Shown: piece after piece, positions 16,767 to 47,417 of the stretch
How the letters are laid out: every line of letters starts with the position of its first letter
Numbering within the stretch: position 1 is the first letter of the stretch
Sequence record: PP400780
Source: Escherichia phage FL18
Strand: one strand, 5' to 3'
Length of the DNA stretch: 64,000 nucleotides
Notes under the pieces: model-generated
The model's database searches: none
What the model saw: only the letters and a program-made list of their open reading frames with translations
Told to the model about the DNA's origin: nothing
Position numbers and translations under genes: made by a program

Positions 16767-19478
16767 ATGAAAGAATTTTACTTAACGGTTGAACAGATTG
16801 GTGATTCAATTTTTGAACGTTACATCGATTCTAATGGCCGTGAACGTACTCGTGAAGTAGAATATAAACCATCACTGTTTGCTCATTGTCCAGAAAGTCA
16901 GGCTACGAAATATTTCGATATCTACGGTAAGCCGTGTACTCGTAAGTTGTTCGCTAATATGCGTGATGCCTCCCAATGGATTAAACGCATGGAAGATATC
17001 GGACTTGAAGCACTTGGCATGGACGATTTCAAATTGGCGTATTTGTCTGACACTTATAACTATGAAATCAAATACGACCATACAAAAATTCGTGTGGCTA
17101 ACTTCGACATCGAAGTAACATCTCCGGATGGGTTCCCTGAGCCATCACAAGCAAAACATCCGATTGATGCTATCACCCATTATGACTCAATTGACGACAG
17201 GTTCTACGTATTTGATCTATTGAATTCTCCATATGGTAATGTAGAAGAATGGTCTATTGAAATCGCTGCTAAGCTTCAAGAACAAGGCGGTGATGAAGTT
17301 CCATCTGAAATTATCGATAAAATCATTTATATGCCGTTCGATAACGAAAAAGAATTGTTGATGGAATATCTCAACTTCTGGCAACAGAAAACTCCTGTCA
17401 TTTTGACTGGATGGAACGTTGAGTCATTCGATATTCCATATGTGTATAACCGAATCAAGAATATTTTTGGCGAATCTACTGCGAAACGTTTATCACCGCA
17501 TCGTAAAACTCGTGTTAAAGTTATCGAAAACATGTATGGTTCTCGTGAAATCATTACATTGTTCGGTATCTCTGTTCTTGATTACATTGACCTTTACAAA
17601 AAATTCTCTTTTACCAATCAACCGTCGTATTCTCTGGATTACATTTCAGAATTTGAATTGAACGTTGGTAAACTGAAATATGATGGCCCTATTTCTAAGC
17701 TTCGTGAAAGCAATCACCAACGATATATAAGCTATAACATCATCGACGTGTATCGTGTATTGCAAATTGATGCTAAGCGTCAGTTCATCAACTTGAGTTT
17801 GGACATGGGTTATTATGCTAAGATACAGATTCAATCTGTGTTTAGCCCAATTAAAACATGGGATGCTATTATTTTTAATAGCCTTAAAGAGCAGAACAAG
17901 GTGATTCCACAAGGTCGTTCTCACCCGGTTCAACCTTATCCCGGCGCTTTTGTTAAGGAACCTATTCCAAATCGATACAAATATGTAATGAGTTTCGACC
18001 TTACATCTCTGTATCCAAGTATTATTCGCCAAGTGAATATTAGCCCGGAAACAATAGCAGGAACGTTTAAAGTAGCTCCATTGCATGATTATATTAACGC
18101 AATCGCTGAACGTCCTTCAGATGTGTACAGTTGCTCTCCTAACGGCATGATGTATTATAAAGACCGTGATGGTGTAGTTCCAACTGAAATCACTAAGGTC
18201 TTTAATCAACGTAAAGAACATAAAGGTTACATGCTTGCAGCTCAACGTAATGGTGAAATAATTAAAGAGGCATTGCATAATCCTAATCTTTCTGTTGACG
18301 AACCATTAGATGTTGATTATCGTTTCGACTTCAGCGATGAGATTAAAGAAAAGATTAAAAAGTTGTCTGCTAAATCTCTTAATGAAATGTTGTTTAGAGC
18401 TCAACGTACTGAAGTTGCAGGTATGACTGCACAAATTAACCGTAAATTGCTTATCAACTCGCTTTATGGTGCACTTGGAAACGTTTGGTTCCGTTATTAC
18501 GATTTGCGTAATGCAACTGCAATCACAACATTCGGGCAAATGGCTTTACAGTGGATTGAACGTAAAGTTAATGAATATCTGAATGAAGTTTGTGGTACAG
18601 AAGGTGAAGCTTTCGTTCTATATGGTGATACAGACTCCATTTATGTATCTGCAGATAAAATTATTGATAAGGTTGGTGAATCTAAATTCCGTGATACCAA
18701 CCATTGGGTAGACTTCTTAGATAAGTTTGCACGTGAACGTATGGAACCTGCTATTGATAGAGGTTTCCGTGAAATGTGCGAATACATGAACAATAAACAA
18801 CACTTAATGTTCATGGACCGAGAAGCTATCGCTGGGCCTCCGCTTGGTTCTAAAGGTATTGGCGGATTTTGGACTGGTAAGAAACGTTATGCATTAAACG
18901 TGTGGGATATGGAAGGTACTCGTTACGCTGAGCCTAAACTCAAAATCATGGGTCTAGAAACTCAGAAATCTTCGACCCCTAAAGCAGTACAGAAAGCTCT
19001 TAAAGAATGTATTCGTCGTATGCTTCAAGAAGGTGAAGAATCATTACAAGAATATTTTAAAGAGTTTGAAAAAGAATTCCGTCAATTGAATTATATTAGC
19101 ATCGCGTCGGTATCTTCTGCGAATAACATTGCTAAATATGACGTAGGTGGATTCCCTGGTCCTAAATGCCCGTTCCATATTCGTGGAATTCTGACATATA
19201 ACCGAGCTATCAAAGGTAATATCGATGCACCACAAGTTGTAGAAGGTGAAAAAGTATATGTTCTGCCTTTACGTGAAGGAAACCCATTCGGTGATAAATG
19301 TATCGCATGGCCTTCTGGTACTGAAATCACAGATTTAATTAAAGACGATGTACTTCATTGGATGGACTACACTGTTCTCCTTGAGAAGACATTTATTAAA
19401 CCACTTGAAGGATTCACATCAGCAGCGAAACTCGATTATGAGAAGAAAGCATCTCTGTTCGATATGTTCGATTTTTGA
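16767..19478 (+). CDS. 43: DNA polymerase gp43 (family B)
   Basis: 903 aa; exonuclease motif FDIE, polymerase motifs SLYPS, NSLYG, YGDTDS. Confidence 0.97.
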   Translation: MKEFYLTVEQIGDSIFERYIDSNGRERTREVEYKPSLFAHCPESQATKYFDIYGKPCTRKLFANMRDASQWIKRMEDIGLEALGMDDFKLAYLSDTYNYEIKYDHTKIRVANFDIEVTSPDGFPEPSQAKHPIDAITHYDSIDDRFYVFDLLNSPYGNVEEWSIEIAAKLQEQGGDEVPSEIIDKIIYMPFDNEKELLMEYLNFWQQKTPVILTGWNVESFDIPYVYNRIKNIFGESTAKRLSPHRKTRVKVIENMYGSREIITLFGISVLDYIDLYKKFSFTNQPSYSLDYISEFELNVGKLKYDGPISKLRESNHQRYISYNIIDVYRVLQIDAKRQFINLSLDMGYYAKIQIQSVFSPIKTWDAIIFNSLKEQNKVIPQGRSHPVQPYPGAFVKEPIPNRYKYVMSFDLTSLYPSIIRQVNISPETIAGTFKVAPLHDYINAIAERPSDVYSCSPNGMMYYKDRDGVVPTEITKVFNQRKEHKGYMLAAQRNGEIIKEALHNPNLSVDEPLDVDYRFDFSDEIKEKIKKLSAKSLNEMLFRAQRTEVAGMTAQINRKLLINSLYGALGNVWFRYYDLRNATAITTFGQMALQWIERKVNEYLNEVCGTEGEAFVLYGDTDSIYVSADKIIDKVGESKFRDTNHWVDFLDKFARERMEPAIDRGFREMCEYMNNKQHLMFMDREAIAGPPLGSKGIGGFWTGKKRYALNVWDMEGTRYAEPKLKIMGLETQKSSTPKAVQKALKECIRRMLQEGEESLQEYFKEFEKEFRQLNYISIASVSSANNIAKYDVGGFPGPKCPFHIRGILTYNRAIKGNIDAPQVVEGEKVYVLPLREGNPFGDKCIAWPSGTEITDLIKDDVLHWMDYTVLLEKTFIKPLEGFTSAAKLDYEKKASLFDMFDF

Positions 19479-19518
19479 TATAATGTCATGGACGGTAAAC
19501 TAATTAAATGAGAGAAAT

Positions 19519-20154
19519 ATGAAAACTACTCCTATTACTATCGCTATTGACGCAATCATAAAACAAGCTTCTTCTTTGGCCGCTATGGCCAAAGTAATTA
19601 GTCAAAACCCTGCTCGTTATAATGCTATTCTAGAAACTCTTCGACGCCCTGGACTTAGTAATTATGAAAGCCGGGTAATTATTACAGGTGTTGGTAAGAA
19701 TGCTAATATCGCAACTAAAGCTTCCGAGACATTTGCTTCACTAGGTATTCCTAGCATGTATTTGAACACTGGGCATTATTCTCACGGTGATGCAGGATTC
19801 ATTGCGCCTAATGATGTGTTGATTCATATTAGTCGTTCTGGTAAGACTGAAGAAATGATAGGTGTTGCTAAACATCTTCGTATGATTCGTCCTCAGGTTA
19901 AACAGATTCTGTTACATTGTAACCCAGACATTCCACAAGAATACGAAGCTCTTTTTGATTATACGTTCTGTACTGGCATCGCGGTAGAGGTTGATGAGAA
20001 TTCTCTGGCTCCGACTATGTCCACTACATTGTTGTTAGCGCTTATCGATACGTTTGCTATCAACCTTTCGTCTGAACGTGGATTTACCTCTAATGATTTC
20101 CTTAAGTTCCATCCAGGCGGTGCACTAGGTGCCATGTTACGAGGCGAACAATGA
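19519..20154 (+). CDS. SIS-domain sugar-phosphate isomerase, arabinose-5-phosphate isomerase-like (KdsD/KpsF N-domain)
   Basis: 211 aa; VIITGVGKNANIATK, HGDAG, HISRSGKTEE, FHPGGALG match the KdsD/GutQ SIS signature; no CBS domains. Confidence 0.8.
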   Translation: MKTTPITIAIDAIIKQASSLAAMAKVISQNPARYNAILETLRRPGLSNYESRVIITGVGKNANIATKASETFASLGIPSMYLNTGHYSHGDAGFIAPNDVLIHISRSGKTEEMIGVAKHLRMIRPQVKQILLHCNPDIPQEYEALFDYTFCTGIAVEVDENSLAPTMSTTLLLALIDTFAINLSSERGFTSNDFLKFHPGGALGAMLRGEQ

Positions 20155-20280
20155 AAGCAATAACAATAGGACTTTTACTATTGATGCTTGTCATGACTAT
20201 CTACTGGAGCTTAACGGCTCCGGTAATGATTCCAACACTTGTAATTGGATGGATTATGATTGGACTACAAGCAAAGTATG

Positions 20281-20307
20281 AATGCTTTAACTAGAATAGT
20301 GTACAAT
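20281..20307 (+). promoter_or_regulatory. MotA-box middle promoter upstream of nucleotidyltransferase-kinase gene
   Basis: AATGCTTTAA box about 19-20 nt upstream of TACAAT -10. Confidence 0.45.
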
Positions 20308-20335
20308 ACTCCTACTTACCAATGAGGACTTTAAC

Positions 20336-22021
20336 ATGAAAAAAGCTGTTATTCTTGGTGCTGGACTGGCAACTCGTTTGTATCCAATAACGCATCATAT
20401 TCCTAAGGTGCTTGTTAACTATAAACAAGATACTATTCTGAGCAATTTGTATACAATTTATTCTGACCTTGGCGCAGATGAAATTATTGTAGTAGTTCAT
20501 TCAAAATTTGCTGAAACTGTTCGAGCTTATTGTGAACAAGAAGGGTTCAATGTGACTATTCGTACAGTTGATGAAGCGTATGGTTCTGCTTATGCTCTTG
20601 CTAAATTACACAAAGATTTAGACGGCCATAATGTAATTGTTAACTGGTGTGATATTATTCCTGATTTTGGTTCATGGTCTTGGAATGTTAACGCAATCTA
20701 TGTTAAGGGTGACGAATGTCGATATAATTTCGACGGTGAAAATATCACTAACGTAGGTTCAACAGGTGGTAATGTTGTAGGAATTTATCAGTTCAAAGAC
20801 TGGGAATTCTATATGGGTTCTACTGATGAGGAAATTCATGAATACTGCAAAGGACGTGATTTCGTAGAATTCCTTTACGGCAGCGCATTCAATAAATCAG
20901 AGCTTATGAATCTAATTGATTTAGGTGATATGCCTAAACTTGAAAAAGCTCATGAAGTTCGTGAACTTAATCGTAGTTTTAATGCAGTTGAAATTGGTGA
21001 AGAAACTGTAACTAAATTCGCATTAACCGAACAGGGTCGAGCTCTTCAGAAAGATGAGATTTCGTGGTATCTTAAAGTGAAATCAGATTCAGTTCCTCAG
21101 TTAGTTTCTGTTAATGAAAATAACTTTGAAATGGAACGCATTAAAGGTAAGCCTGCATTTGAATATATTAAATCCAAATCAAGTCTTGCTCGTCCACAAA
21201 TTGTTGATGCAATTTTAGATGCACTGAAATTCAGCACAGACACTTATTTTGTAAGTCCTGAAACTGTTCGTCGTGATTTCACTAAAGAATTCTATACGAA
21301 AGTTATTGATCGTTGTGAAAGCATTCAACCATTGATTGATTCATTTGGTAAAATCACACATGTGAACTACACTAAGATTGGACGTCTGAAGCCAATGCTG
21401 AAACAAGCTTTAGAACACCTCATTCGTTATCATAACCGTTCTCAGGGACAGTACTCTGTTATTCACGGTGACCCGAACTTCAGTAATACTATGATTACTG
21501 ATAATGGCGAAGTCAAGTTTATCGACCCTCGTGGATATTTTGGTGAAACCAAGATTTACGGGCCAAAATTGTACGATGAAGCTAAAGTGCTTTATGCTGT
21601 TTCAGGTTATGATGAATTCAATGCTAATCCGACCTGGGGGCAGTTTACTATTGATGAAACAACTTGTAATGTGACTATTAACATCAATCCATTAGTTTAC
21701 AAATATAGAAAGATGAGTTCGTTTAACGAGTATCATCATTTGGCAGTGGCAATTATCTGGATTGCATTAGGCGGTTATTTCAAGAATAATCCACTTAAAG
21801 CGGTAGCCGCATATTATAAAGGTATGGAACTTCTGACTAAGCAATTACGTAACATGGGCCGTGTACTTCAGGACGGCTCTATTAGTTATGACGTAGCAGA
21901 ACCTGTAACGGCTACTCTGATTACAAAAAATCCTGGTAAATGGGTACTAACTGATAAAGAAACTGGTGTTTCCTATCGTCCAATCGGTGGCGATATCACT
22001 CATCAATGGGAACGAATCTAA
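20336..22021 (+). CDS. bifunctional sugar-1-phosphate nucleotidyltransferase / APH-fold sugar kinase
   Basis: 561 aa; N-terminal AVILGAGLATRLYPIT nucleotidyltransferase loop; C-terminal HGDPNFSN...FIDPRG phosphotransferase catalytic/Mg loops. Confidence 0.75.
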   Translation: MKKAVILGAGLATRLYPITHHIPKVLVNYKQDTILSNLYTIYSDLGADEIIVVVHSKFAETVRAYCEQEGFNVTIRTVDEAYGSAYALAKLHKDLDGHNVIVNWCDIIPDFGSWSWNVNAIYVKGDECRYNFDGENITNVGSTGGNVVGIYQFKDWEFYMGSTDEEIHEYCKGRDFVEFLYGSAFNKSELMNLIDLGDMPKLEKAHEVRELNRSFNAVEIGEETVTKFALTEQGRALQKDEISWYLKVKSDSVPQLVSVNENNFEMERIKGKPAFEYIKSKSSLARPQIVDAILDALKFSTDTYFVSPETVRRDFTKEFYTKVIDRCESIQPLIDSFGKITHVNYTKIGRLKPMLKQALEHLIRYHNRSQGQYSVIHGDPNFSNTMITDNGEVKFIDPRGYFGETKIYGPKLYDEAKVLYAVSGYDEFNANPTWGQFTIDETTCNVTININPLVYKYRKMSSFNEYHHLAVAIIWIALGGYFKNNPLKAVAAYYKGMELLTKQLRNMGRVLQDGSISYDVAEPVTATLITKNPGKWVLTDKETGVSYRPIGGDITHQWERI

Positions 22022-22407
22022 TGCACCGTGTAGAAAACATGCTTAATCTTTGTTTTGATGTCGATGATTGTATAACAGAGTGGAATAACAATCGTGATTA
22101 CGTGAACTTCAAACCTGACGTCGAAATGGTGTCTGCCATTAATGCCCTGTATGATGCAGGGCATACCATAACGCTTTACACTGCTCGCGGTATGAAGTCA
22201 GTAGGTCCTGGACGTATAGCAATTGACATTCTCCCAAGTCTGATTCAGAACTTGGAAAACATTGGTTTGAAGTACCATAATTTGCTAACACATAAACCAG
22301 TATATGATTGGATTATCGACGACAAAGCTATGCGTCCTGACGAATTCAAAGCTCTTATGAATAAAGGCGAATTCGAAACATTTAAATCGTATAAACCGAA
22401 TCTATAA
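22021..22407 (+). CDS. HAD-superfamily phosphatase (KdsC-like size)
   Basis: 128 aa from ATG overlapping upstream stop (TAATG); HAD motif I CFDVDDCIT. Confidence 0.65.
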   Translation: MHRVENMLNLCFDVDDCITEWNNNRDYVNFKPDVEMVSAINALYDAGHTITLYTARGMKSVGPGRIAIDILPSLIQNLENIGLKYHNLLTHKPVYDWIIDDKAMRPDEFKALMNKGEFETFKSYKPNL

Positions 22408-22463
22408 TAATTTAAGTAAGACCTGCAAAAACCATCGCGTCAATTAACGTGAGATGCAAAAAA

Positions 22464-23624
22464 ATGAATACTTTTAAAATTGGAACGAATTTTGATTTAG
22501 CTCTTCTTGATAAAATCGTAGAGCTCAATAAAACTTATCCTAATAGCTTGATAAACGAAGTATACGGCTCTACAAGAGAAATGGCTTTTGTAGCAGCCAG
22601 ACCTGATTTTAGGCTTCCTGACGTTGACAAAAAGATGTTAGAAGATTACGTTAAACGTTGTAACGAATTAGGTATTTGCTTTAACTATACACTCAACACG
22701 ATAAATCCTGGTTCAAAAAGAGAACTAGTTGAGTGGAAGAAGAAAGCTATTCAGGATTATGTTCAGTATCTTTGGTCAATAGGTGTATGGCGTATTACTA
22801 TCGCTAACCCTGTTGTTATGGAAATTGTTCGTGAAGTCAATAAAGACATTGAGATTGAAGTTTCAACAATTCTACATGTCGATGCTGTAACTCAAATCAA
22901 ATACTTGCATGACCAGTATAATATCAAAAAGGTCTGCTGTGGAATTCATAAGAACCGTTCAGTTTCTTTCCTGAAGCGTGCAGCAGAGTTTTGCAATAAG
23001 AACAATATAATATTTGAAGTTCTTGTAAATGAGTTCTGTTCTAATGCTGGTAAAGGGTATACAACACATTGTAGCTATCGTGACTCTTGCTATATTTTCC
23101 ATAGTACTGATGTTACAGCTGATGATGCTAAATCCTTAAACGGATATCCTATGCAGCACTGTATTAAAGCTCGTGATACAGACCCATTTAACTGGTTGAG
23201 AACTCGTTTTGTTCGTCCTCAAGATTTGAAACTTTATAATGATATTGGTATCACTCAATTCAAAGTTTCAGGACGTACAGGTAGCACAGACTACATTTTG
23301 AAAGTTCTTGAAGCATACGCTTCTGAAAAGTTTGAAGGTAATTTGTTAGAACTGTGGAAGCCTTTAGAGACTATTTTCACTCTTGAAAACGAAACTGAGT
23401 TTTCACATACAGTAAATATTGAAACCTCTTTGTTAGATGGCTTTTTAGAAAAAAGGTGGTTCAGACATCCAGATTTCGATTGTGCTAATGAAATCTGCGG
23501 GACGACGTGTACATATTGTGAAAGATATTATAAACGTCAATTATCTAAAAACGGGTTAGCAGAAAACTCTATATCTATTATTGATATAACTAACTCTGAT
23601 GACGCTTTGAGGTACCCGGAATGA
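22464..23624 (+). CDS. U32-peptidase-family-like protein (TIM-barrel, Cys-rich)
   Basis: 386 aa from first ATG; N-terminal VYGS..FVAAR..NYTLNT resembles U32 barrel; EFCSNAGKGYTTHCSYRDSC cysteine cluster; family assignment tentative. Confidence 0.45.
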   Translation: MNTFKIGTNFDLALLDKIVELNKTYPNSLINEVYGSTREMAFVAARPDFRLPDVDKKMLEDYVKRCNELGICFNYTLNTINPGSKRELVEWKKKAIQDYVQYLWSIGVWRITIANPVVMEIVREVNKDIEIEVSTILHVDAVTQIKYLHDQYNIKKVCCGIHKNRSVSFLKRAAEFCNKNNIIFEVLVNEFCSNAGKGYTTHCSYRDSCYIFHSTDVTADDAKSLNGYPMQHCIKARDTDPFNWLRTRFVRPQDLKLYNDIGITQFKVSGRTGSTDYILKVLEAYASEKFEGNLLELWKPLETIFTLENETEFSHTVNIETSLLDGFLEKRWFRHPDFDCANEICGTTCTYCERYYKRQLSKNGLAENSISIIDITNSDDALRYPE

Positions 23625-23860
23625 TTTCTAGAAAAACTTTTAATCACCAACTTAATGAAGAGATTTTGACTACGAAACTGAACACTAACGAACAAATTCT
23701 TAAAAAGGCCCTTATGGGCCTGTTTGAAACCAAAGCGGCTAAAGTGATTAAAGGACCTGTTCAATTAGAATATTACGCTGATACATTTCTTCATAGTGTT
23801 CTTGGAAGTATCGATGCTGAAGCTTTACGTTATATCAACATTGCCAAGAAATTCAAATAA
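23621..23860 (+). CDS. hypothetical protein (79 aa)
   Basis: ATGA-coupled ORF inside the cassette. Confidence 0.5.
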   Translation: MISRKTFNHQLNEEILTTKLNTNEQILKKALMGLFETKAAKVIKGPVQLEYYADTFLHSVLGSIDAEALRYINIAKKFK

Positions 23861-23883
23861 GCTTTACGAATTGAGTATATAAT
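23859..23883 (+). promoter_or_regulatory. MotA-box middle promoter upstream of hydroxymethylase gene
   Basis: AAGCTTTAC box about 18 nt upstream of TATATAAT. Confidence 0.4.
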
Positions 23884-23902
23884 AAATTGTATTGAGGTAA
23901 AC

Positions 23903-24619
23903 ATGGGGAAACATAACACAATGAAATATATCAAAGCCGCAGATTTTCAAACCGCATTTAAAGCAGTCAATCGTGAAATTTTAGAAAACCCGGAATTCGT
24001 AACTGATTCTCGTATTGGACGTTGTAATGAAATTGGGTCTATGACAGTAGTTGTTGACACTCCATCATCATTCAAAATGACTGACCCACGTATTAACCGC
24101 ATCTCTTATGAATATGCCGAAGACTTCTGGAAGTTTATGATTTCTGGTGGTACCAACGCAGAAGAAGCGTTTAAGGCATATCCTAATGTCGCTAAATTTA
24201 TTTCTAAACCAAAATCAGATGTTTTGCCGGCGAACTTCAATACTTTCTATGGTCCTCGCATTGCGGCCCAATTACCAGCTCTTCTAAAAGAACTTAAAGA
24301 GAAGCCTAACTCTCGAAGAGTTGTGTTCCAAATTCTAGAAAGTTCTGATCAGGCTTTGCTTGATTCGGATGAAACGCTTGAATATCCATGTACTGACTCA
24401 GTGACTTATTATATTCGTGATGGTAAGCTTTATACCCACTGTCATATGCGTTCTCAGAACTGTGCTGTTGTTATGCAGTTGGATTTTTATCTCCAAGGAA
24501 AATTACTTCATTATATCGCTAACGAATGCGGTGTAGAAGTTGGTGATTATACTCATACCATGGTAAGTGCCCATGTGTTTGAACGTGATTTTGATTATGT
24601 TAAAGGATTCCTTGACTAA
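23903..24619 (+). CDS. thymidylate-synthase-fold pyrimidine hydroxymethylase, divergent (gene 42 position; likely dCMP hydroxymethylase)
   Basis: 238 aa; PNSRRVVFQIL, catalytic-Cys context YPCTDSVTYYIRDGKL, MRSQN, HTMVSAHVFERDF align with T4 gp42/TS motifs but overall divergent. Confidence 0.65.
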   Translation: MGKHNTMKYIKAADFQTAFKAVNREILENPEFVTDSRIGRCNEIGSMTVVVDTPSSFKMTDPRINRISYEYAEDFWKFMISGGTNAEEAFKAYPNVAKFISKPKSDVLPANFNTFYGPRIAAQLPALLKELKEKPNSRRVVFQILESSDQALLDSDETLEYPCTDSVTYYIRDGKLYTHCHMRSQNCAVVMQLDFYLQGKLLHYIANECGVEVGDYTHTMVSAHVFERDFDYVKGFLD

Positions 24620-25518
24620 TGGCTATTTTCCGCGTACCAATCTTGAGTATGCGGTCTTATGAAACTGGACAGTATGCTATCCTTAAGGATGGCAACTTCC
24701 AACTTCATTTGCACCGTGCTAATCCGGGTGATGTGATTACATATCCACGTAATGCATCTGATATTAAAGAATGCGAACGTCTTTTCCCAGAATTTAAGTT
24801 TGTTCCATTATGGTATAAAGATAACGCTTATAACACTCGTAAATATTTCTGGTCTGAAAATGAATTTGTGGTTGATTCATTAATTGCTTATTATGATTGC
24901 GATTTTCTAATCACAGATATAACTGGATATGACGGCGCTTTTGATGTAGAATTCAATTTCAATATCACTGCAGACCCTAATAAACCACGTTTTTATATTG
25001 ACGAATTCTTAAAAACCGACATGTTGTCGGTTAATCGTTCAATCCAAACAACTGTGTTGAATGAACGTCAAAAAGAAGTGCTGGTTAACGCAGGTGCAGA
25101 TGGTAATAAGATTATCGTAACGCAGAAAGTTATACGTCCTTCCATCATGCAGCGTCTTGTAGGTGATTTGGCTCCTATTTATCTAGATGGTATTTTTCAT
25201 CCATTTCGAATTAGTGACCCGTGCTATCGTTTTGAACAAGTGGTTGAATGTGCAATTCAATTAGGTCAACCGCTTTATATAACCGATCCAAATAATAGCT
25301 TTGACAGAAATAAGTATCCTGAAGAAGCGTTGATTCGAATTTTTAAACCAACTAAAACTGAGTACTATCAAATTCTTAAAGGACGTCCGAAGATTCAATA
25401 TTTCGAAAATCCTGAAGAGGTATTTCATCCAGGTCTTGGTGAGTTCATCTACTTTAATGCTTTAATTTCTTCACCGTATAATATACCTAAATATGAAGAT
25501 GTCGTAATCGAGGAATAA
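24619..25518 (+). CDS. hypothetical protein at beta-glucosyltransferase locus (candidate DNA sugar transferase)
   Basis: 299 aa; no similarity to T4 beta-gt noticed; function by position only. Confidence 0.5.
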   Translation: MAIFRVPILSMRSYETGQYAILKDGNFQLHLHRANPGDVITYPRNASDIKECERLFPEFKFVPLWYKDNAYNTRKYFWSENEFVVDSLIAYYDCDFLITDITGYDGAFDVEFNFNITADPNKPRFYIDEFLKTDMLSVNRSIQTTVLNERQKEVLVNAGADGNKIIVTQKVIRPSIMQRLVGDLAPIYLDGIFHPFRISDPCYRFEQVVECAIQLGQPLYITDPNNSFDRNKYPEEALIRIFKPTKTEYYQILKGRPKIQYFENPEEVFHPGLGEFIYFNALISSPYNIPKYEDVVIEE

Positions 25519-25519
25519 A

Positions 25520-26068
25520 ATGGCTAAAATTATTTTAGTAGATGGCCCGGATAATGCTGGTAAAACAACTTTCATTAATGACATAATGGAAATTAGTGAA
25601 AGATATGTAAAAATTGATTTCCCTAAACGAACAGTTGATGGACGTTTCGATGTTAAGTCTCGAAATGAAGTTGGCTGTTTTGAAACGATGTTGAATTATT
25701 TAGACCCTACTAAGATTTATCTGTTAGACCGTGGATATATTAGTAACTGGGTTTACGGACGTATTCGACAAGATGCGGACTCGGTTCTTGACGTTTATGA
25801 ACAGGATTATATTCGTCTTTGCCAAAACCATGATGTGTTCACAATTATTTTAACACGTAACGAAATGACTGAAAGTTTTGAAGACGACCTTATTACTTTG
25901 TCTTCATTCGGTTTTAATACAGTCATTTCACATTTTGAAGAGTTTGCAATTCATAACAAAATCCAAACGTATCAATTACTTAATCATGATGGTGCTAACA
26001 AAGTTATAGGATTTAATGCAAGCGAACGTAATGGTTTGATTACAGAAATCATCAAATGGGCTCGTTAA
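25520..26068 (+). CDS. P-loop nucleotide kinase, thymidylate-kinase-like
   Basis: 182 aa; Walker A VDGPDNAGKTT, LLDRGY (DRY/H-like) motif. Confidence 0.65.
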   Translation: MAKIILVDGPDNAGKTTFINDIMEISERYVKIDFPKRTVDGRFDVKSRNEVGCFETMLNYLDPTKIYLLDRGYISNWVYGRIRQDADSVLDVYEQDYIRLCQNHDVFTIILTRNEMTESFEDDLITLSSFGFNTVISHFEEFAIHNKIQTYQLLNHDGANKVIGFNASERNGLITEIIKWAR

Positions 26069-26085
26069 GAGCCATTTAAAGTTTT

Positions 26086-26113
26086 AAATGCTGTATAACC
26101 CTTAGTATATAAT
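26086..26113 (+). promoter_or_regulatory. MotA-box middle promoter upstream of uvsX
   Basis: AATGCTGTA box about 20 nt upstream of TATATAAT. Confidence 0.45.
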
Positions 26114-26167
26114 CATCTTATCTTTTAAACATGAGTAAAATATAATGATGCCTATGGAAAAAATACA

Positions 26168-27340
26168 ATGTCTGATTTAAAATCTCGTCTGATTAAAGCT
26201 TCTACTTCTAAAATGACTGCAGACTTGACTAAGTCTAAGCTGTTTAATAATCGTGATGAAGTCCCTACTCGTATTCCGATGTTGAATATTGCACTAGGTG
26301 GTGCTCTGAATGCAGGATTGCAATCAGGCTTGACTATTTTTGCTGCACCTTCTAAACACTTTAAAACGTTGTTTGGACTGACCATGGTTGCAGCATATAT
26401 GAAGAAATATAAAGATGCAATCTGTTTGTTTTATGACTCAGAATTCGGTGCTTCAGAATCTTATTTTCGTTCAATGGGTGTTGATTTAGACCGTGTAGTT
26501 CATACACCAATTCAGTCAGTCGAACAACTTAAAGTTGATATGACTAATCAGCTTGACGCTATTGAACGCGGTGATAAAGTTATTATCTTTATCGATTCAA
26601 TCGGTAATACTGCATCTAAGAAAGAAACCGAAGATGCATTGAACGAGAAAGTTGTAGGTGATATGTCTCGTGCTAAGGCACTTAAATCTCTTTTCCGTAT
26701 TGTGACTCCTTATCTGACTATTAAAGATATTCCATGTGTTGCAATCAACCATACCGCAATGGAAATTGGTGGATTGTACCCTAAAGAGATTATGGGCGGC
26801 GGTACAGGTATTCTTTACTCGGCTAACACTGTATTCTTTATCTCTAAACGTCAGGTTAAGGATGGCACTGAATTGACCGGTTATGACTTCACGTTGAAAG
26901 CAGAAAAATCTCGTACAGTTAAAGAGAAATCTACTTTCCCAATCACAGTTAATTTTGATGGTGGTATCGACCCATTCAGTGGCTTGTTAGAAATGGCAAC
27001 TGAAATCGGTTTTGTAGTTAAGCCTAAAGCTGGTTGGTATGCTCGTGAATTCCTTGACGAAGAAACAGGTGAAATGATTCGTGAAGAGAAATCATGGCGT
27101 GCTAAAGCTACTGATTGTGTAGAATTCTGGGGTCCTTTGTTTAAACACAAACCTTTCCGAGATGCAATTGAAACTAAATATAAACTAGGTGCTATCTCTT
27201 CTATTAAAGAAGTTGATGACGCTGTTAATGACCTTATTAATTGCAAAGCAACAACTAAAGTTCCGGTTAAAACTTCTGATGCTCCGTCTGCAGCAGATAT
27301 AGAAAACGACCTTGACGAAATGGAAGATTTCGATGAATAA
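26168..27340 (+). CDS. uvsX: RecA-like recombinase UvsX
   Basis: 390 aa, close match to T4 UvsX as recalled (MSDLKSRLIKASTSK..., acidic C-terminus). Confidence 0.95.
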   Translation: MSDLKSRLIKASTSKMTADLTKSKLFNNRDEVPTRIPMLNIALGGALNAGLQSGLTIFAAPSKHFKTLFGLTMVAAYMKKYKDAICLFYDSEFGASESYFRSMGVDLDRVVHTPIQSVEQLKVDMTNQLDAIERGDKVIIFIDSIGNTASKKETEDALNEKVVGDMSRAKALKSLFRIVTPYLTIKDIPCVAINHTAMEIGGLYPKEIMGGGTGILYSANTVFFISKRQVKDGTELTGYDFTLKAEKSRTVKEKSTFPITVNFDGGIDPFSGLLEMATEIGFVVKPKAGWYAREFLDEETGEMIREEKSWRAKATDCVEFWGPLFKHKPFRDAIETKYKLGAISSIKEVDDAVNDLINCKATTKVPVKTSDAPSAADIENDLDEMEDFDE

Positions 27341-44456: not shown

Positions 44457-46274
44457 ATGATTAAAAATGAAATTAAGGTATTGACAGATGTAGAACATAT
44501 TAAGAAACGTAGTGGTATGTATATTGGTTCTTCGGCTAAAGAAGCACATGAGCGTTTTTTGTTTGGTAAATATCAACAAGTTGAATATGTTCCTGGTCTG
44601 GTTAAATTAATCGATGAGATTATTGACAACTCGGTTGATGAAGCTATTCGTACATCATTTAAGTTTGCAAATAAAATTGATGTGCAAATTAAAAATAATC
44701 AAGTTTCGGTGGAAGATAACGGACGTGGTATTCCTCAAGGTTTAGTTACTGACCAAACAGGTGAACAAATTCCTGGTCCTGTAGCGGCCTGGACTATTCC
44801 AAAGGCTGGTGGTAACTTTGGTGATGATTCTGAACGCAAGACTGGTGGTATGAACGGCGTCGGGAGTAGTTTAACTAATATCTTCTCTACGTTGTTTACA
44901 GGCATCACGTCAGATGGCGAAAACGAAATCACTGTTAACTGTTCAAACGGAATGGAAAACAAATCATGGTCTTCTAAGAAATCTAAAGGTAAAGGCACTA
45001 AAGTAATCTTCACTCCTGATTTCTCTTCATTTGAAGAACATAATTTATCTCAAATTTATTTAGATATTACTTTAGACCGACTTCAAACATTGGCAGTCGT
45101 TTATCCTGATATCAAGTTCACATTTAATGGTAAAAAGGTTGATGGTAATTTTAAACGATTTGCTAAACAATTTGGTGAAGATAACATCATTCAAGAAAAT
45201 GATAAAGTCTCTATAGCATTCACAACATCACCAGATGGCTTCCGTCATTTAACTTATGTGAATAACATCCATACTAAAAATGGTGGCCATCATGTTGAAT
45301 GCGTAATGGATGATATCTGCGAACATCTTTTGCCGGGTATTAAAAAGAAATATAAGGGTATTGAAGTCACTAAAGCTCGTGTTAAAGAATGCCTCACAAT
45401 GTTGATGTTTATTAGAGACATGAGCAACATGCGTTTTGATTCTCAGACTAAAGAACGTTTAACGTCAACGTATGGTGATATTCGTAATCATATCCAATTA
45501 GATGCTAAGAAAATTGCTCAGGCACTTCTTAAAAACGAAGCCTTGATTATGCCTATTGTTGAAGCAGCATTAGCTCGTAAATTGGCAGCAGAAAAGGCTG
45601 CAGAAACTAAAGCAGCTAAAAAGGCAACTAAAGCTAAGGTTCATAAGCATATTAAAGCTAACCAATGTGGTAAAGATGCAGATACGACATTGTTTTTAAC
45701 AGAAGGTGATTCGGCAATTGGTTATCTCATTGATGTTCGTGACCGTGAACTACACGGCGGATTCCCATTACGTGGTAAGGTGATGAATAGCTGGGGTATG
45801 TCATATGCTGATATGATGAAGAACAAAGAGCTCTTTGATATCTGTGCTATCACAGGTCTTATTCTTGGTGAAAAGGCAGAGAATACGAACTATCGTAATA
45901 TTGCAATTATGACCGATGCCGATCACGACGGTCTTGGAAGTATTTATCCTGCTTTGCTTGCTTTCTTTAGTAATTGGCCCGAATTGTTTGAACAAGGACG
46001 TATTCGCTTTGTTAAAACACCTGTAATTATTGCACAAATTGGCAAAACTCAAAAATGGTTTTATACTGTAGCTGAGTATGAAGAAGTTAAAGATACACTG
46101 CCTAAGCATAGTATTCGATACATCAAGGGATTAGGCTCCCTTGAAAAGTCAGAGTATCGTGAAATGATTCAGAACCCTGTGTACGACGTAGTTAAACTTC
46201 CTGAAAATTGGAAAGAACTCTTTGAAATGTTGTTGGGTGATGATTCAGAACTTCGTAAAGAATGGATGTCCTAA
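44457..46274 (+). CDS. 39: type II DNA topoisomerase large (ATPase/GyrB-like) subunit gp39, unsplit
   Basis: 605 aa continuous; GHKL motif IDEIIDNSVDEA, TOPRIM-like region; no separate gene 60 follows. Confidence 0.92.
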   Translation: MIKNEIKVLTDVEHIKKRSGMYIGSSAKEAHERFLFGKYQQVEYVPGLVKLIDEIIDNSVDEAIRTSFKFANKIDVQIKNNQVSVEDNGRGIPQGLVTDQTGEQIPGPVAAWTIPKAGGNFGDDSERKTGGMNGVGSSLTNIFSTLFTGITSDGENEITVNCSNGMENKSWSSKKSKGKGTKVIFTPDFSSFEEHNLSQIYLDITLDRLQTLAVVYPDIKFTFNGKKVDGNFKRFAKQFGEDNIIQENDKVSIAFTTSPDGFRHLTYVNNIHTKNGGHHVECVMDDICEHLLPGIKKKYKGIEVTKARVKECLTMLMFIRDMSNMRFDSQTKERLTSTYGDIRNHIQLDAKKIAQALLKNEALIMPIVEAALARKLAAEKAAETKAAKKATKAKVHKHIKANQCGKDADTTLFLTEGDSAIGYLIDVRDRELHGGFPLRGKVMNSWGMSYADMMKNKELFDICAITGLILGEKAENTNYRNIAIMTDADHDGLGSIYPALLAFFSNWPELFEQGRIRFVKTPVIIAQIGKTQKWFYTVAEYEEVKDTLPKHSIRYIKGLGSLEKSEYREMIQNPVYDVVKLPENWKELFEMLLGDDSELRKEWMS

Positions 46275-46316: not shown

Positions 46317-47417
46317 ATGAAAGTTATGTTTATCCCATCTCGCGCAGTCCCATTTAACCCAGAACGTGTACAAGGTGGTCTTGAAGCAGTACATTTAAAT
46401 GTGTTGAAATATCTTGTGTCCATCGGTGCTGATATTGATTATATCGGCTTTGATAATGACACGTTTGGTGACTGGAAGGTTAATCATCATCCTGTTGGTC
46501 ATCTGACTAAATTCAGTCTAGGTATGAGTTATACTATGGCTCGTAAGATTGTTGAACTAGCCGGCATTAATGAGTACGATTTCGTTGTTACAATGGAACC
46601 GACCAAACTAACCGTTCAGGCAATTAAAGACGCAGGTCTCTCTAAAGTTCATAAGAATTTTATGGCAACACCATTTGAACCAGTATCTCGTGGCATTGTT
46701 CAAATTTGGGACCAGACTATTCAAATTCATAAGAACGGTGGTAAGAGTTATGCTCCTACTAAAGCCTTCCGTGAATTTGAACGCAAATATTGTTATATGA
46801 CTTCAGGTCTGACTGACAAAATTGATTATGATTATTGGCGAGCAAATCCGTTGTTTGAAGCCGAAGATTATCCGGTTATTTGTTTGAATGATAAACCTGA
46901 AGTTCTTCCGGCGACGGATCTGATTATTAGTGCACAACGTTATGACACTAAAATGCGTCGTACTGATGTTGCTCTTGAAGCGATTAAAGCACTAGGCGAA
47001 AATGGTGCAGGATACTGTCCAAGCAAATGGGCGCCACCGGCTAAATATCCTGTTATTATTGATGCTCCACACAGTGAAATTATGGAACGTCTTAAAACAG
47101 CTAAAGCACTTATTAATACGTGTCCTGACACAGGTACGGTAGAGAATAGTTCTATTGAAGCCATCTCTAAAGGTGTCCCTGTAATCCAGTTAGTTTTTAA
47201 GGATTATCCTCATGCGACATTTGAATACGACCCAGATACTGTGCGTGTAGAAATTGATTCCTCTACTCCTAAGAAAGAAGTAGTTGCGCTTTACACAAAA
47301 GCTGTATTAGAATTCACTGACACATACGAAGCTCGAGTTAAACGTGCTGAAGCTGTATGGAAGAAGTATAACCGAGATGCAGTTGTTGCGATGTGGGATA
47401 AAATCTTCACAGCGTAA
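46317..47417 (+). CDS. GT-B fold glycosyltransferase (candidate DNA sugar transferase)
   Basis: 366 aa; N-terminal MKVMFIP..GGLEAVH Rossmann start; C-terminal TGTVENSSIEAISKGVPVI resembles the GT4 E-x7-E donor-binding motif. Confidence 0.6.
   Translation: MKVMFIPSRAVPFNPERVQGGLEAVHLNVLKYLVSIGADIDYIGFDNDTFGDWKVNHHPVGHLTKFSLGMSYTMARKIVELAGINEYDFVVTMEPTKLTVQAIKDAGLSKVHKNFMATPFEPVSRGIVQIWDQTIQIHKNGGKSYAPTKAFREFERKYCYMTSGLTDKIDYDYWRANPLFEAEDYPVICLNDKPEVLPATDLIISAQRYDTKMRRTDVALEAIKALGENGAGYCPSKWAPPAKYPVIIDAPHSEIMERLKTAKALINTCPDTGTVENSSIEAISKGVPVIQLVFKDYPHATFEYDPDTVRVEIDSSTPKKEVVALYTKAVLEFTDTYEARVKRAEAVWKKYNRDAVVAMWDKIFTA

Follow-up and report, generated by a model that had tools for sequence, protein, structure and literature searches.

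What is encoded by the open reading frame (ORF) that occupies the position of the T4 beta-glucosyltransferase gene (beta-gt) in Escherichia phage FL18? We addressed this question in a 64,000-nucleotide stretch of the phage sequence (record PP400780; hereafter the window), in which the position is taken by an ORF of 299 aa. The reading we prefer, with a probability of roughly two in three, is that the protein is a GT-B glycosyltransferase (GT) that puts the base-proximal alpha-D-arabinofuranose (alpha-D-Araf) on the 5-hydroxyl of 5-hydroxycytosine in DNA, using UDP-Araf made by the products of neighbouring genes. The role is not new (it was published in 2025–2026, and the first-arabinosyltransferase prediction for the RB69-like gene in 2026); the remaining value of this locus lies in the linkage of the GT to a kinase and in the question of the acceptor.

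With arabinosyl-5-hydroxycytosine, a recently defined DNA hypermodification, RB69-like, Acinetobacter, Serratia and further T4-like phages gain protection against restriction enzymes and DNA glycosylases, and also against some CRISPR systems. Formation of the ether bond between base and sugar is the committing step, and neither Lee et al. nor the Thanatos report includes its reconstitution. With the enzyme and its true acceptor known, modification status could be predicted from genomes, for example those of phage-therapy candidates, and phages could be engineered with a defined modification; the 299-aa enzyme itself could serve as a tool for glycosylating 5-hydroxycytosine in DNA.

A conserved gene in the position of beta-gt

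The ORF opens with an ATG, a choice of start that its homologs support by starting at the same residue in alignment A1, and this ATG overlaps the stop of the upstream 238-aa ORF by one base (...GAC TAATGG...). A 182-aa kinase gene, uvsX, gp40 and gp41 follow (Table 1), while the T4 record reads 43-imm-42-beta-gt-segA-uvsX-40-41; the ORF thus lies, as the original prediction held, in the T4 beta-gt slot, downstream of a TS-family gene and upstream of uvsX. The TAATG overlap noted at the same time is also real, but the likeness drawn to T4 does not extend to it, as gene 42 and beta-gt are separated there by a 23-nt gap. Promoter and terminator counts between 19000 and 27500 were at or below shuffled expectation, and the scan was therefore uninformative on operon structure.

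Table 1. Genes of the predicted modification pathway and conserved residues of the 299-aa protein, in window coordinates.
Feature	Position	Strand	Basis or conservation
SIS-domain arabinose-5-phosphate isomerase, RB69 gp55 ortholog	19519..20154	+	PF01380, phrog_5670 E=2e-116, literature
561-aa bifunctional NTP-transferase + kinase, AfhE-like, RB69 gp52:53	20336..22021	+	PF00483 N-terminal; kinase-like C-terminal matches
133-aa HAD-type sugar-phosphate phosphatase, AfhF-like, RB69 gp51	22006..22407	+	TIGR01689 E=2e-13, phrog_1238, literature
391-aa U32-'peptidase'-like protein, RB69 gp50	22449..23624	+	PF01136 E=8e-11
TS homolog, RB69 gp48 ortholog	23903..24619	+	E=8e-161 to PDB 9iqc/9ir2
299-aa predicted GT-B protein	24619..25518	+	
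S10-M11-R12-S13, Y19, D24-G25-N26	24646..24696	+	N-domain, beta1-alpha1 loop region; at least 89–99% conserved
R74	24838..24840	+	N-domain Arg, 99% conserved
P195-F196-R197-I-S-D200	25201..25218	+	After first C-domain strand (192–194), loop in model; P195 99%, R197 98%, D200 97%
T222-D223-P224-N225	25282..25293	+	Loop after second C-domain strand; 89–96% conserved; putative role
K246	25354..25356	+	Start of helix 246–254 (model); basic in 97%
H270-P271-G272-x-x-E275	25426..25443	+	H270 100% conserved; position 275 acidic in 100%
182-aa dTMP-kinase-like P-loop kinase, RB69 gp45 ortholog	25520..26068	+	phrog_761 E=7e-45; gene junctions; fusions P0230, P0238
uvsX	26168..27340		
366-aa second GT-B, RB69 gp3/ORF003c ortholog	46317..47417	+	E=7e-248 to PDB 9iqz/9ir0; 98.9% identity to RB69ORF003c

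The protein matches PHROG 3891 (phrog_3891, E=1e-155), and its family is found in 350 phage records and in 226 clusters at 50% identity (1.84 billion proteins searched), so that the ORF is a genuine conserved gene and not a chance ORF. It scores 98% to RB69 ORF047c/046c, 49% identity to Thanatos TH1_063 (E=5e-86) and 46% to DLP3 gp79. These comparisons make the protein an ortholog of RB69 gp46:47, DLP3 gp79 and TH1_063, the proteins named 'arabinosyltransferase 1' by Lee et al. (NAR 2026, PMC13326640).

The order TS homolog, GT, dTMP-kinase-like (TMPK-like) kinase is kept, with the genes following one another directly, in the window, DLP3, PspYZU05, Thanatos, L007 and P9VFCI; three small ORFs separate the TS homolog from the GT in locus L005. 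The GT co-occurs with an Asn-type (D169N) TS homolog, recognizable by HMRSxN or FMRSQN, in seven of seven loci, and the motif-less PS2 relative lies beside YMRSND.

Predicted fold and conserved residues

Searches of Pfam (even at E<=0.1) and NCBIfam returned no match to the 299-aa protein, including none to the nucleotidyltransferase families PF00483 and PF12804. PDB searches with the single sequence and the family profile gave no meaningful match, and no GT at E<=10 with the profile; the sole profile match, a sulfhydrogenase subunit at E=0.64, was dismissed as noise. Probabilities from hhalign were 0.09% for the family against T4 beta-gt, 0.15% against the PS2 beta-gt homolog and 0.4% against the window's own second GT (the gp3 ortholog), bearing out the earlier remark that the protein has no beta-gt sequence and no obvious GT motif.

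Structure prediction and a fold search, the route suggested at the outset, point to a GT-B fold. The model consists of two Rossmann-like beta/alpha/beta domains with an inter-domain cleft, the arrangement of the GT-B superfamily, and the best fold matches are GT4-like, for this protein as for the 366-aa GT (fold neighbours among predicted viral structures were sought in BFVD). As modelled, the protein is most likely a compact, sequence-divergent GT-B glycosyltransferase, an assignment made without detectable sequence kinship to any GT family. The gene, its predicted fold, orthology, synteny and phyletic pattern were established in this analysis.

Among 227 family sequences, with identity falling as low as 20%, about 25 positions show conservation of 85% or higher, a plausible NDP-binding set among them. 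R197, K246, H270 and E275 of the C-domain are conserved at 97–100%. R197 would bind the UDP diphosphate, by analogy with the conserved Arg of GT4-type enzymes, and K246 is a candidate second diphosphate ligand; H270-P-G-x-x-E275 stands where GT4 enzymes have E-x7-E, with E275 as the putative ligand of the UDP ribose. Because of the GT-B architecture, the N-domain motifs (S10-M11-R12-S13, Y19 and D24-G25-N26) are expected to form the acceptor side of the cleft, where D24 is a candidate general base or acceptor ligand and R74 a candidate ligand of the acceptor's phosphate.

The proposed modification pathway and the acceptor of the first arabinose

The gene upstream of the GT had been taken for a hydroxymethylase, a reading that its sequence contradicts: the product has Asn at the position of ThyA Asp169 and Asp at that of Asn177, whereas T4 gp42 has the motif MRSND and is 25% identical to it. 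Judged by these residues and by its orthology to RB69 gp48, whose 5hodCMP synthase activity has been demonstrated (Lee et al., PMC13326640), it is a 5-hydroxy-dCMP synthase that makes the acceptor base and not a T4-type dCMP hydroxymethylase. The SIS-domain isomerase is the first step of the donor-sugar branch, and the AfhE-like protein is predicted to make UDP-Araf, by analogy with HY126 AfhE, for which Lee et al. (PMC13326640) cite a report of UDP-arabinose synthesis. The U32-like gene is kept in many clusters, with homologs in Thanatos (TH1_065) and L013, and is absent from the DLP3 cluster; TH1_065 was considered as a second Thanatos GT and rejected as U32-like. The 366-aa GT, whose PDB matches 9iqz/9ir0 are titled 'phage HY126 glycosyltransferase', is proposed to add a second, beta-linked arabinose.

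In the mechanism that we favour, the TS homolog would hydroxylate dCMP to 5-hydroxy-dCMP, which would be phosphorylated and then polymerised into phage DNA, and the isomerase, kinase/pyrophosphorylase and phosphatase genes would supply UDP-Araf. The C-terminal Rossmann domain of the 299-aa GT would bind this donor through R197, K246, H270 and E275, and its N-terminal domain (S10/R12, D24-G25-N26, R74) would hold the cytosine and present the 5-OH, so that the C5-O-glycosidic ether could form; the 366-aa GT would then extend the product with the second arabinose. The arabinose next to the base is alpha-D-Araf, those farther out beta-D-Araf. Since both would come from a single donor, the two GTs must differ in stereochemical course; the 299-aa GT probably yields the anomer opposite to that of the gp3-type GT, and this orphan family may be the one that inverts while the GT4-like second enzyme retains, or vice versa.

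Published work covers the modification chemistry and, in Lee et al. (PMC13326640), the 5hodCMP synthase activity and the DNA-level addition of a third arabinose in DLP3, while transferase catalysis by the 299-aa protein or an ortholog is demonstrated neither there nor in the Thanatos report (PMC12838424). We infer the first-transferase role, the residue roles, the use of UDP-Araf and, most of all, a DNA acceptor in place of a mononucleotide.

The TMPK-like kinase always adjoins the GT (gaps of +1, -13, -13, -4, -19, -17 and +7 nt) or is fused to it. P0230 and P0238 are single chains in which the GT is joined to a dTMP-kinase-like domain (TIGR00041 at E values of about 1e-6 to 7e-6, under the curated cut-offs, as are the fusion-partner assignments in general), and in L014 a kinase gene overlaps the HAD-GT fusion upstream. 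Pairwise BLAST gave no significant match between the fusion partners and the window kinase or phosphatase, and hhalign was weak both for a fusion partner against the kinase family (17%) and for the HAD partner against the window phosphatase (2.7%), the HAD partner being KdsC-type and the window phosphatase EcbF/BcbF-type, a different subfamily. Informative genomic context comes from P0238 (L013), with P0230, P0152 and P0139 on short contigs.

Such linkage could mean that the protein does add the first arabinose, yet adds it before replication, to 5-hydroxy-dCMP or the di- or triphosphate, with the polymerase incorporating the glycosylated nucleotide and the adjoining kinase dedicated to the bulky arabinosyl-5-hydroxy-dCMP. 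Two mononucleotide enzymes flank the GT in every lineage, their genes overlapping or nearly so, and the fusions and the L014 overlap point the same way, although a neighbouring TS homolog is not a diagnostic feature, given that T4 beta-gt comes after gene 42 yet acts on DNA, and the fusion-partner matches carry the limits given above. Phosphorylation of 5hodCMP is already provided by a T4 gp1-type kinase (RB69 gp159), so that no required substrate is left for the TMPK-like kinase. The acidic character of the family (median pI 5.1) does not suggest DNA binding, a weak indication that is not decisive between a DNA and a nucleotide acceptor. All characterised cases of phage DNA glycosylation known to us take place after replication; to our knowledge, a natural nucleobase glycosylation that precedes it would, if true, be the first.

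DLP3 gp79, among the individual DLP3 GTs, did not arabinosylate 5hoC-DNA, whether the donor was UDP-Araf or UDP-Arap (a result that Lee et al., PMC13326640, give as data not shown), and the same authors state that their data do not separate a mononucleotide from a DNA acceptor. This negative result may, however, be due to the donor, to its very low concentration (0.2 µM) or to a missing partner; moreover, the third arabinose of DLP3 goes onto DNA, and 5hodC readily enters DNA without any GT (Lee et al., PMC13326640). On balance we consider action before replication unlikely, and would be slightly more doubtful still of a two-step channel in which GT and TMPK-like kinase glycosylate and then phosphorylate, handing the polymerase a pre-glycosylated dCTP analogue.

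The only published in vitro activity of the family suggests a different role. TH1_063, a clear ortholog, makes UDP-xylose from UTP and xylose-1-phosphate and was termed a 'UDP-xylose pyrophosphorylase', and it was not seen to pass xylose on to DNA, dCMP, dCTP or cytosine (PMC12838424). The 299-aa protein could by this token form a UDP-pentose and transfer nothing to the base, a GT-B phosphorylase-type reaction of sugar-1-phosphate and UDP also being conceivable. We regard this as quite improbable: the acceptors tested had no 5-hydroxyl group, which makes the negative transfer result uninformative, and co-purified host enzymes are a possible source of the activity. The cluster already has a bona fide NTP-transferase domain in the AfhE-like protein (whose HY126 ortholog reportedly makes UDP-arabinose), the predicted fold of the 299-aa protein is GT-B with neither nucleotidyltransferase family matched, and mono-arabinosylating phages would be left without a recognizable GT. 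We know of no precedent for nucleotidyl transfer by a GT-B fold.

The original prediction proposed a sugar transferase, which the predicted fold and the orthology favour, perhaps adding a second sugar or another modification after a different enzyme had installed the first. For this second part it can be said that both window GTs are GT-B proteins with GT4-like best matches, that sugar order has no experimental assignment in Lee et al. and the Thanatos report, and that the HY126 GT with a solved structure is of the 366-aa kind, which may thus be the better characterised enzyme. The phyletic pattern nevertheless makes it very improbable: no GT of the 366-aa type occurs in the phage records from Serratia, Shewanella, Klebsiella, Yersinia, Pseudomonas and Proteus in which the 299-aa family is found, and of these lineages at least Thanatos (cluster inspected; a single ara-GT according to Lee et al., PMC13326640) and LC53 are reportedly mono-arabinosylated. 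In addition, DLP3 gp76 and gp77, of the 366-aa type, act on DNA that is already arabinosylated (Lee et al., PMC13326640). A non-catalytic or regulatory GT-like subunit that needs the kinase-like protein or another GT, as one DLP3 transfer step needs both gp76 and gp77 (Lee et al., PMC13326640), as the GT-kinase fusions with their hint of a physical complex would allow and as the persistence of the motif-less PS2 relative might suggest, is most improbable given a conservation pattern of the kind usual in active enzymes rather than in scaffolds.

Comparison with known systems

The 299-aa protein, a putative first arabinosyltransferase acting on DNA, is predicted to share the two-Rossmann-domain fold of the GT4-type retaining GT-B enzymes (sucrose-phosphate synthase 6kih, BshA 6n1x, MshA 3c4q and PimA 2gej), which use UDP or GDP sugar donors and have the C-domain Arg, Lys and acidic residue in the same order. 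It is about 60–100 residues shorter than these enzymes and, unlike them, matches neither Glycos_transf_1 (PF00534) nor Glyco_trans_4; the E-x7-E element is replaced by a shorter one with His for the first Glu, and the predicted acceptor, in contrast to theirs, is a nucleobase hydroxyl. T4 alpha-glucosyltransferase (1y6f) and the HY126/RB69 gp3-type GT have no sequence relationship to the protein, and the phyletic distribution of the gp3-type GT differs from that of the 299-aa family. T4 beta-gt, which belongs to CAZy GT63, shares the genomic slot and the broad GT-B class, and would also share a UDP-sugar donor and a modified-cytosine acceptor.

Within the family, Rhizobium phage RL38J1 gp215 ('galactosyltransferase 1', P9VFCI_115) is a remote member (hhalign 99.1%; only 27% identity over the aligned part) that retains the SMRSYETG, DGN, PYRLTD and TDPN motifs and whose gene is flanked, as in the window, by those for an Asn-type TS homolog and a P-loop kinase. 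The base-proximal sugar of RL38J1 is galactose, and its donor is probably UDP-Galf, because the phage encodes a UDP-galactopyranose mutase. The closest systems are those of RB69 gp46:47, DLP3 gp79 and TH1_063, from which the window protein differs in essentially nothing; the gene is whole in the window, but a sequencing error in the RB69 reference record breaks it into ORF047c and ORF046c.

The 299-aa gene and its predicted fold

As the original prediction had stated, the gene is a 299-aa ORF with an ATG start that overlaps by one base the TAA of the preceding 238-aa ORF (GACTAATGG); the next ORF begins one base past its stop, preceded by a good GAGGA Shine-Dalgarno. Its assignment to the T4 β-gt slot agrees with the T4 record (43-imm-42-β-gt-segA-uvsX-40-41), the order in the window being TS homolog, 299-aa ORF, kinase, uvsX, 40, 41. 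The gene is strongly conserved, the family occurring in 350 phage records (tblastn) from Escherichia, Acinetobacter, Klebsiella, Shigella, Serratia, Enterobacter, Proteus, Yersinia, Pseudomonas and other hosts, and in 226 clusters when 1.84 billion representative proteins were searched exhaustively with a profile. The window itself is that of an RB69-like T-even phage, ∼98% identical to APCEc01 and other Mosigvirus-type phages; the best match, Escherichia phage JM17, shares 99.2% identity with it across 8 kb. JM17 (PP400779.1) aligns to window 19000..27000 in two pieces, its stretch being ∼700 bp longer than the query and annotated with, among others, a GIY-YIG homing endonuclease; JM17 probably carries a mobile-element insertion absent from the window.

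The protein matches PHROG 3891 ('unknown function'; E=1e-155), while Pfam (E<=0.1) and NCBIfam returned no match, PDB sequences were matched neither by the protein nor by a 50-sequence family profile, and hhalign against T4 β-gt, a β-gt homolog and the window's second glycosyltransferase gave a probability of <=0.4% in each case. The absence of an obvious GT motif and of β-gt sequence is thus confirmed; the suggested unrelated fold is not, since a GT-B fold is predicted. The protein lies outside the GT4 sequence definition, with H270-P-G-x-x-E275 replacing the E-x7-E element. Conservation scored over 227 family sequences, reaching down to 20% identity, left S10, R12, Y19, D24-G25-N26, P43, Y66 and R74 near-invariant in the N-terminal domain and Q151, P195-F196-R197, D200, Y203, T222-D223-P224-N225, K246, H270 and E275 in the C-terminal domain. 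Among these, R197, K246, H270 and E275 plausibly form a putative UDP site, and D24, R12 and R74 may belong to the acceptor site.

Coordinates of the features discussed (window positions, or positions in the compared loci where an L number is given)
Feature	Position	Strand
U32 'peptidase'-like gene, 391 aa	22449..23624	+
Basic ORF, 79 aa	23621..23860	+
TS homolog	23903..24619	+
299-aa ORF (GT)	24619..25518	+
Kinase gene	25520..26068	+
Topoisomerase large subunit gene	44457..46274	
366-aa GT gene	46317..47417	+
Kinase gene	L002:6933-7475	
Kinase gene	L003:6864-7400	
Kinase gene	L004:31359-31919	
Kinase gene	L005:9059-9607	
Kinase gene	L007:9028-9588	
Kinase gene	L010:5956-6591	
Kinase gene	L014:129-740	
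Flavodoxin_2 gene	L005:605-1123	
Flavodoxin_2 gene	L007:6539-7054	
Flavodoxin_2 gene	L008:1815-2330	
PS2 FF83_gp042	L009:4953-5879	
GT-kinase fusion	L013:5412-7064	
HAD-GT fusion	L014:733-2343	

The modified base and the first sugar

The original prediction is partly upheld: a sugar transferase tied to the isomerase and kinase genes fits both the predicted fold and the literature, where this gene is already the published candidate for the arabinosyltransferase that acts first in making arabinosyl-5-hydroxycytosine. The proposed hmC substrate has to be given up: under the revised chemistry, RB69 DNA carries arabinose linked via oxygen straight to C5 rather than arabinosyl-hmC, and the acceptor base, 5-hydroxycytosine, arises as 5-hydroxy-dCMP, the TS homolog using flavin and O2 (PMC13326640). 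The supposed upstream hydroxymethylase fares no better, as the window TS homolog, which differs from PDB 9iqc/9ir2/9iqu (E=8e-161) by a handful of substitutions across 238 residues, has Asn at the ThyA-Asp169 position, with Asp at the Asn177 position, and is only 25% identical to T4 gp42 (MRSQN vs MRSND in T4). Lee et al. regard D169N as diagnostic for 5hodCMP synthases (PMC13326640), and the TS homolog beside the GT is Asn-type in 7/7 loci examined.

In a divergent clade with proteins of ∼350 aa, the Asn-type TS homolog is immediately preceded by a flavin-reductase-like Flavodoxin_2 (PF02525) gene, which overlaps it in the metagenomic locus L007; this position would suit a role in providing the 5hodCMP synthase with reduced flavin. 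No flavin-reductase-like gene was seen beside the window's TS homolog, just upstream of which is a 79-aa basic ORF (pI 9.5; phrog_8601, of unknown function; hypothetical in related phages) that overlaps the U32-like gene at its 3' end. The latter is shared by the arabinosylation clusters of the window, Thanatos (TH1_065, located behind the kinase) and L013 (at 48% identity) and absent from that of DLP3, and Lee et al. guess it to be a 'sugar or heterocycle reductase' (PMC13326640). TH1_065 was considered as a GT and rejected as U32-like.

The window's second GT, of 366 aa, is 98.9% identical to RB69 ORF003c and matches the 'phage HY126 glycosyltransferase' structures solved with UDP (PDB 9iqz/9ir0; E=7e-248); its gene sits after that of the topoisomerase large subunit. 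This type occurs in 211 records only, with one copy in coliphage and Shigella phages and two in Acinetobacter phages, and its copy number of 0, 1 or 2 runs parallel to the number of sugars reported: mono-arabinose in Thanatos and Serratia LC53, di-arabinose in Mosigvirus and Bas46, and tri-arabinose in DLP3. These sugar counts, the 299-aa type as the sole GT type in the Thanatos cluster, the Asn-type TS homologs beside the GT and the two remote members described next independently support a first-sugar role and speak against the suggested second-sugar role.

A genuine remote member in Serratia phage PS2 (FF83_gp042; hhalign 99.2%) has lost every invariant family motif; it follows an Asp-type hydroxymethylase-like TS homolog, precedes T4-type β-α-gt and β-gt, lacks a kinase, and probably survives as a relic, either degenerate or repurposed. 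The putative active-site signature therefore travels with 5-hydroxy-C chemistry. The Rhizobium phage member retains the motifs, and in the related phage RL38J1, where the base-proximal sugar is galactose, the equivalent protein is named 'galactosyltransferase 1', so that the family is best described as base-proximal 5-hydroxycytosine glycosyltransferases.

Stereochemistry, published activity and the acceptor

The RB69 glycan is β-D-Araf-(1-3)-α-D-Araf-O5-dC, to which DLP3 adds a further β-(1-5)-Araf (PMC13326640). Because the proximal linkage is α and the distal β, the two GT types must follow opposite stereochemical courses if both draw on one UDP-D-Araf anomer, and since in fold each is similar to the retaining GT4 enzymes, one of them would be unusual.

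The accessible literature documents no transferase activity for any member of the 299-aa family. DLP3 gp79 by itself did not modify 5hoC-DNA (PMC13326640), a weak negative given that the donor was commercial UDP-arabinofuranose at 0.2 uM, and Lee et al. note that their data cannot tell a mononucleotide from a DNA acceptor for the first arabinose (PMC13326640). The Thanatos ortholog TH1_063 (49% identity) was reported to make UDP-xylose from UTP and xylose-1-phosphate and called a pyrophosphorylase (PMC12838424), which is hard to reconcile with the predicted GT-B fold and the genuine NTP-transferase domain encoded next door; we interpret the result as the work of a contaminant or of a GT that binds UDP-pentose and runs in reverse, like a phosphorylase.

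Coupling to a dTMP-kinase-like protein

A new observation here concerns a dTMP-kinase-like P-loop protein of ∼180 aa, to which the GT is invariably linked. In the window, DLP3, PspYZU05, Thanatos, the Rhizobium phage and two metagenomic clades, their genes either overlap or lie almost end to end; in L014 the kinase gene overlaps that of the GT from the upstream side. The two make up one polypeptide in the family proteins P0230 and P0238 (L013), whose kinase part matches TIGR00041 with scores under the curated cut-off (E about 1e-6 to 7e-6). P0238 is also flanked by SIS, AfhE-like and U32-like genes. The 17 kb shown of L007 (JGI 3300045918 contig) include the TS homolog-GT-kinase module, with no SIS, NTP-transferase or HAD sugar-activation genes inside a distance of 8 kb. 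This phage may draw its NDP-sugar from the host and attach another sugar next to the base.

In three further metagenomic proteins (P0139, P0152 and P0219; L012, L014) the GT domain is preceded, in the same chain, by a HAD sugar-phosphate phosphatase of the KdsC type (TIGR01670, E=5e-11), which ties the GT to the sugar-activation branch too. The window's own phosphatase belongs to a different HAD subfamily (EcbF/BcbF-type).

A T4 gp1-type kinase turns 5hodCMP into 5hodCDP and with the synthase is enough for 5hodC in DNA (PMC13326640), which leaves three options for the TMPK-like kinase. It may be a redundant 5hodCMP kinase, or the GT may require it as an obligate partner; that the kinase phosphorylates arabinosyl-5hodCMP, with the GT acting on the nucleotide, seems to us improbable. 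Obligate partnership would have a parallel in DLP3, where gp76 and gp77 are both required for one step (PMC13326640).
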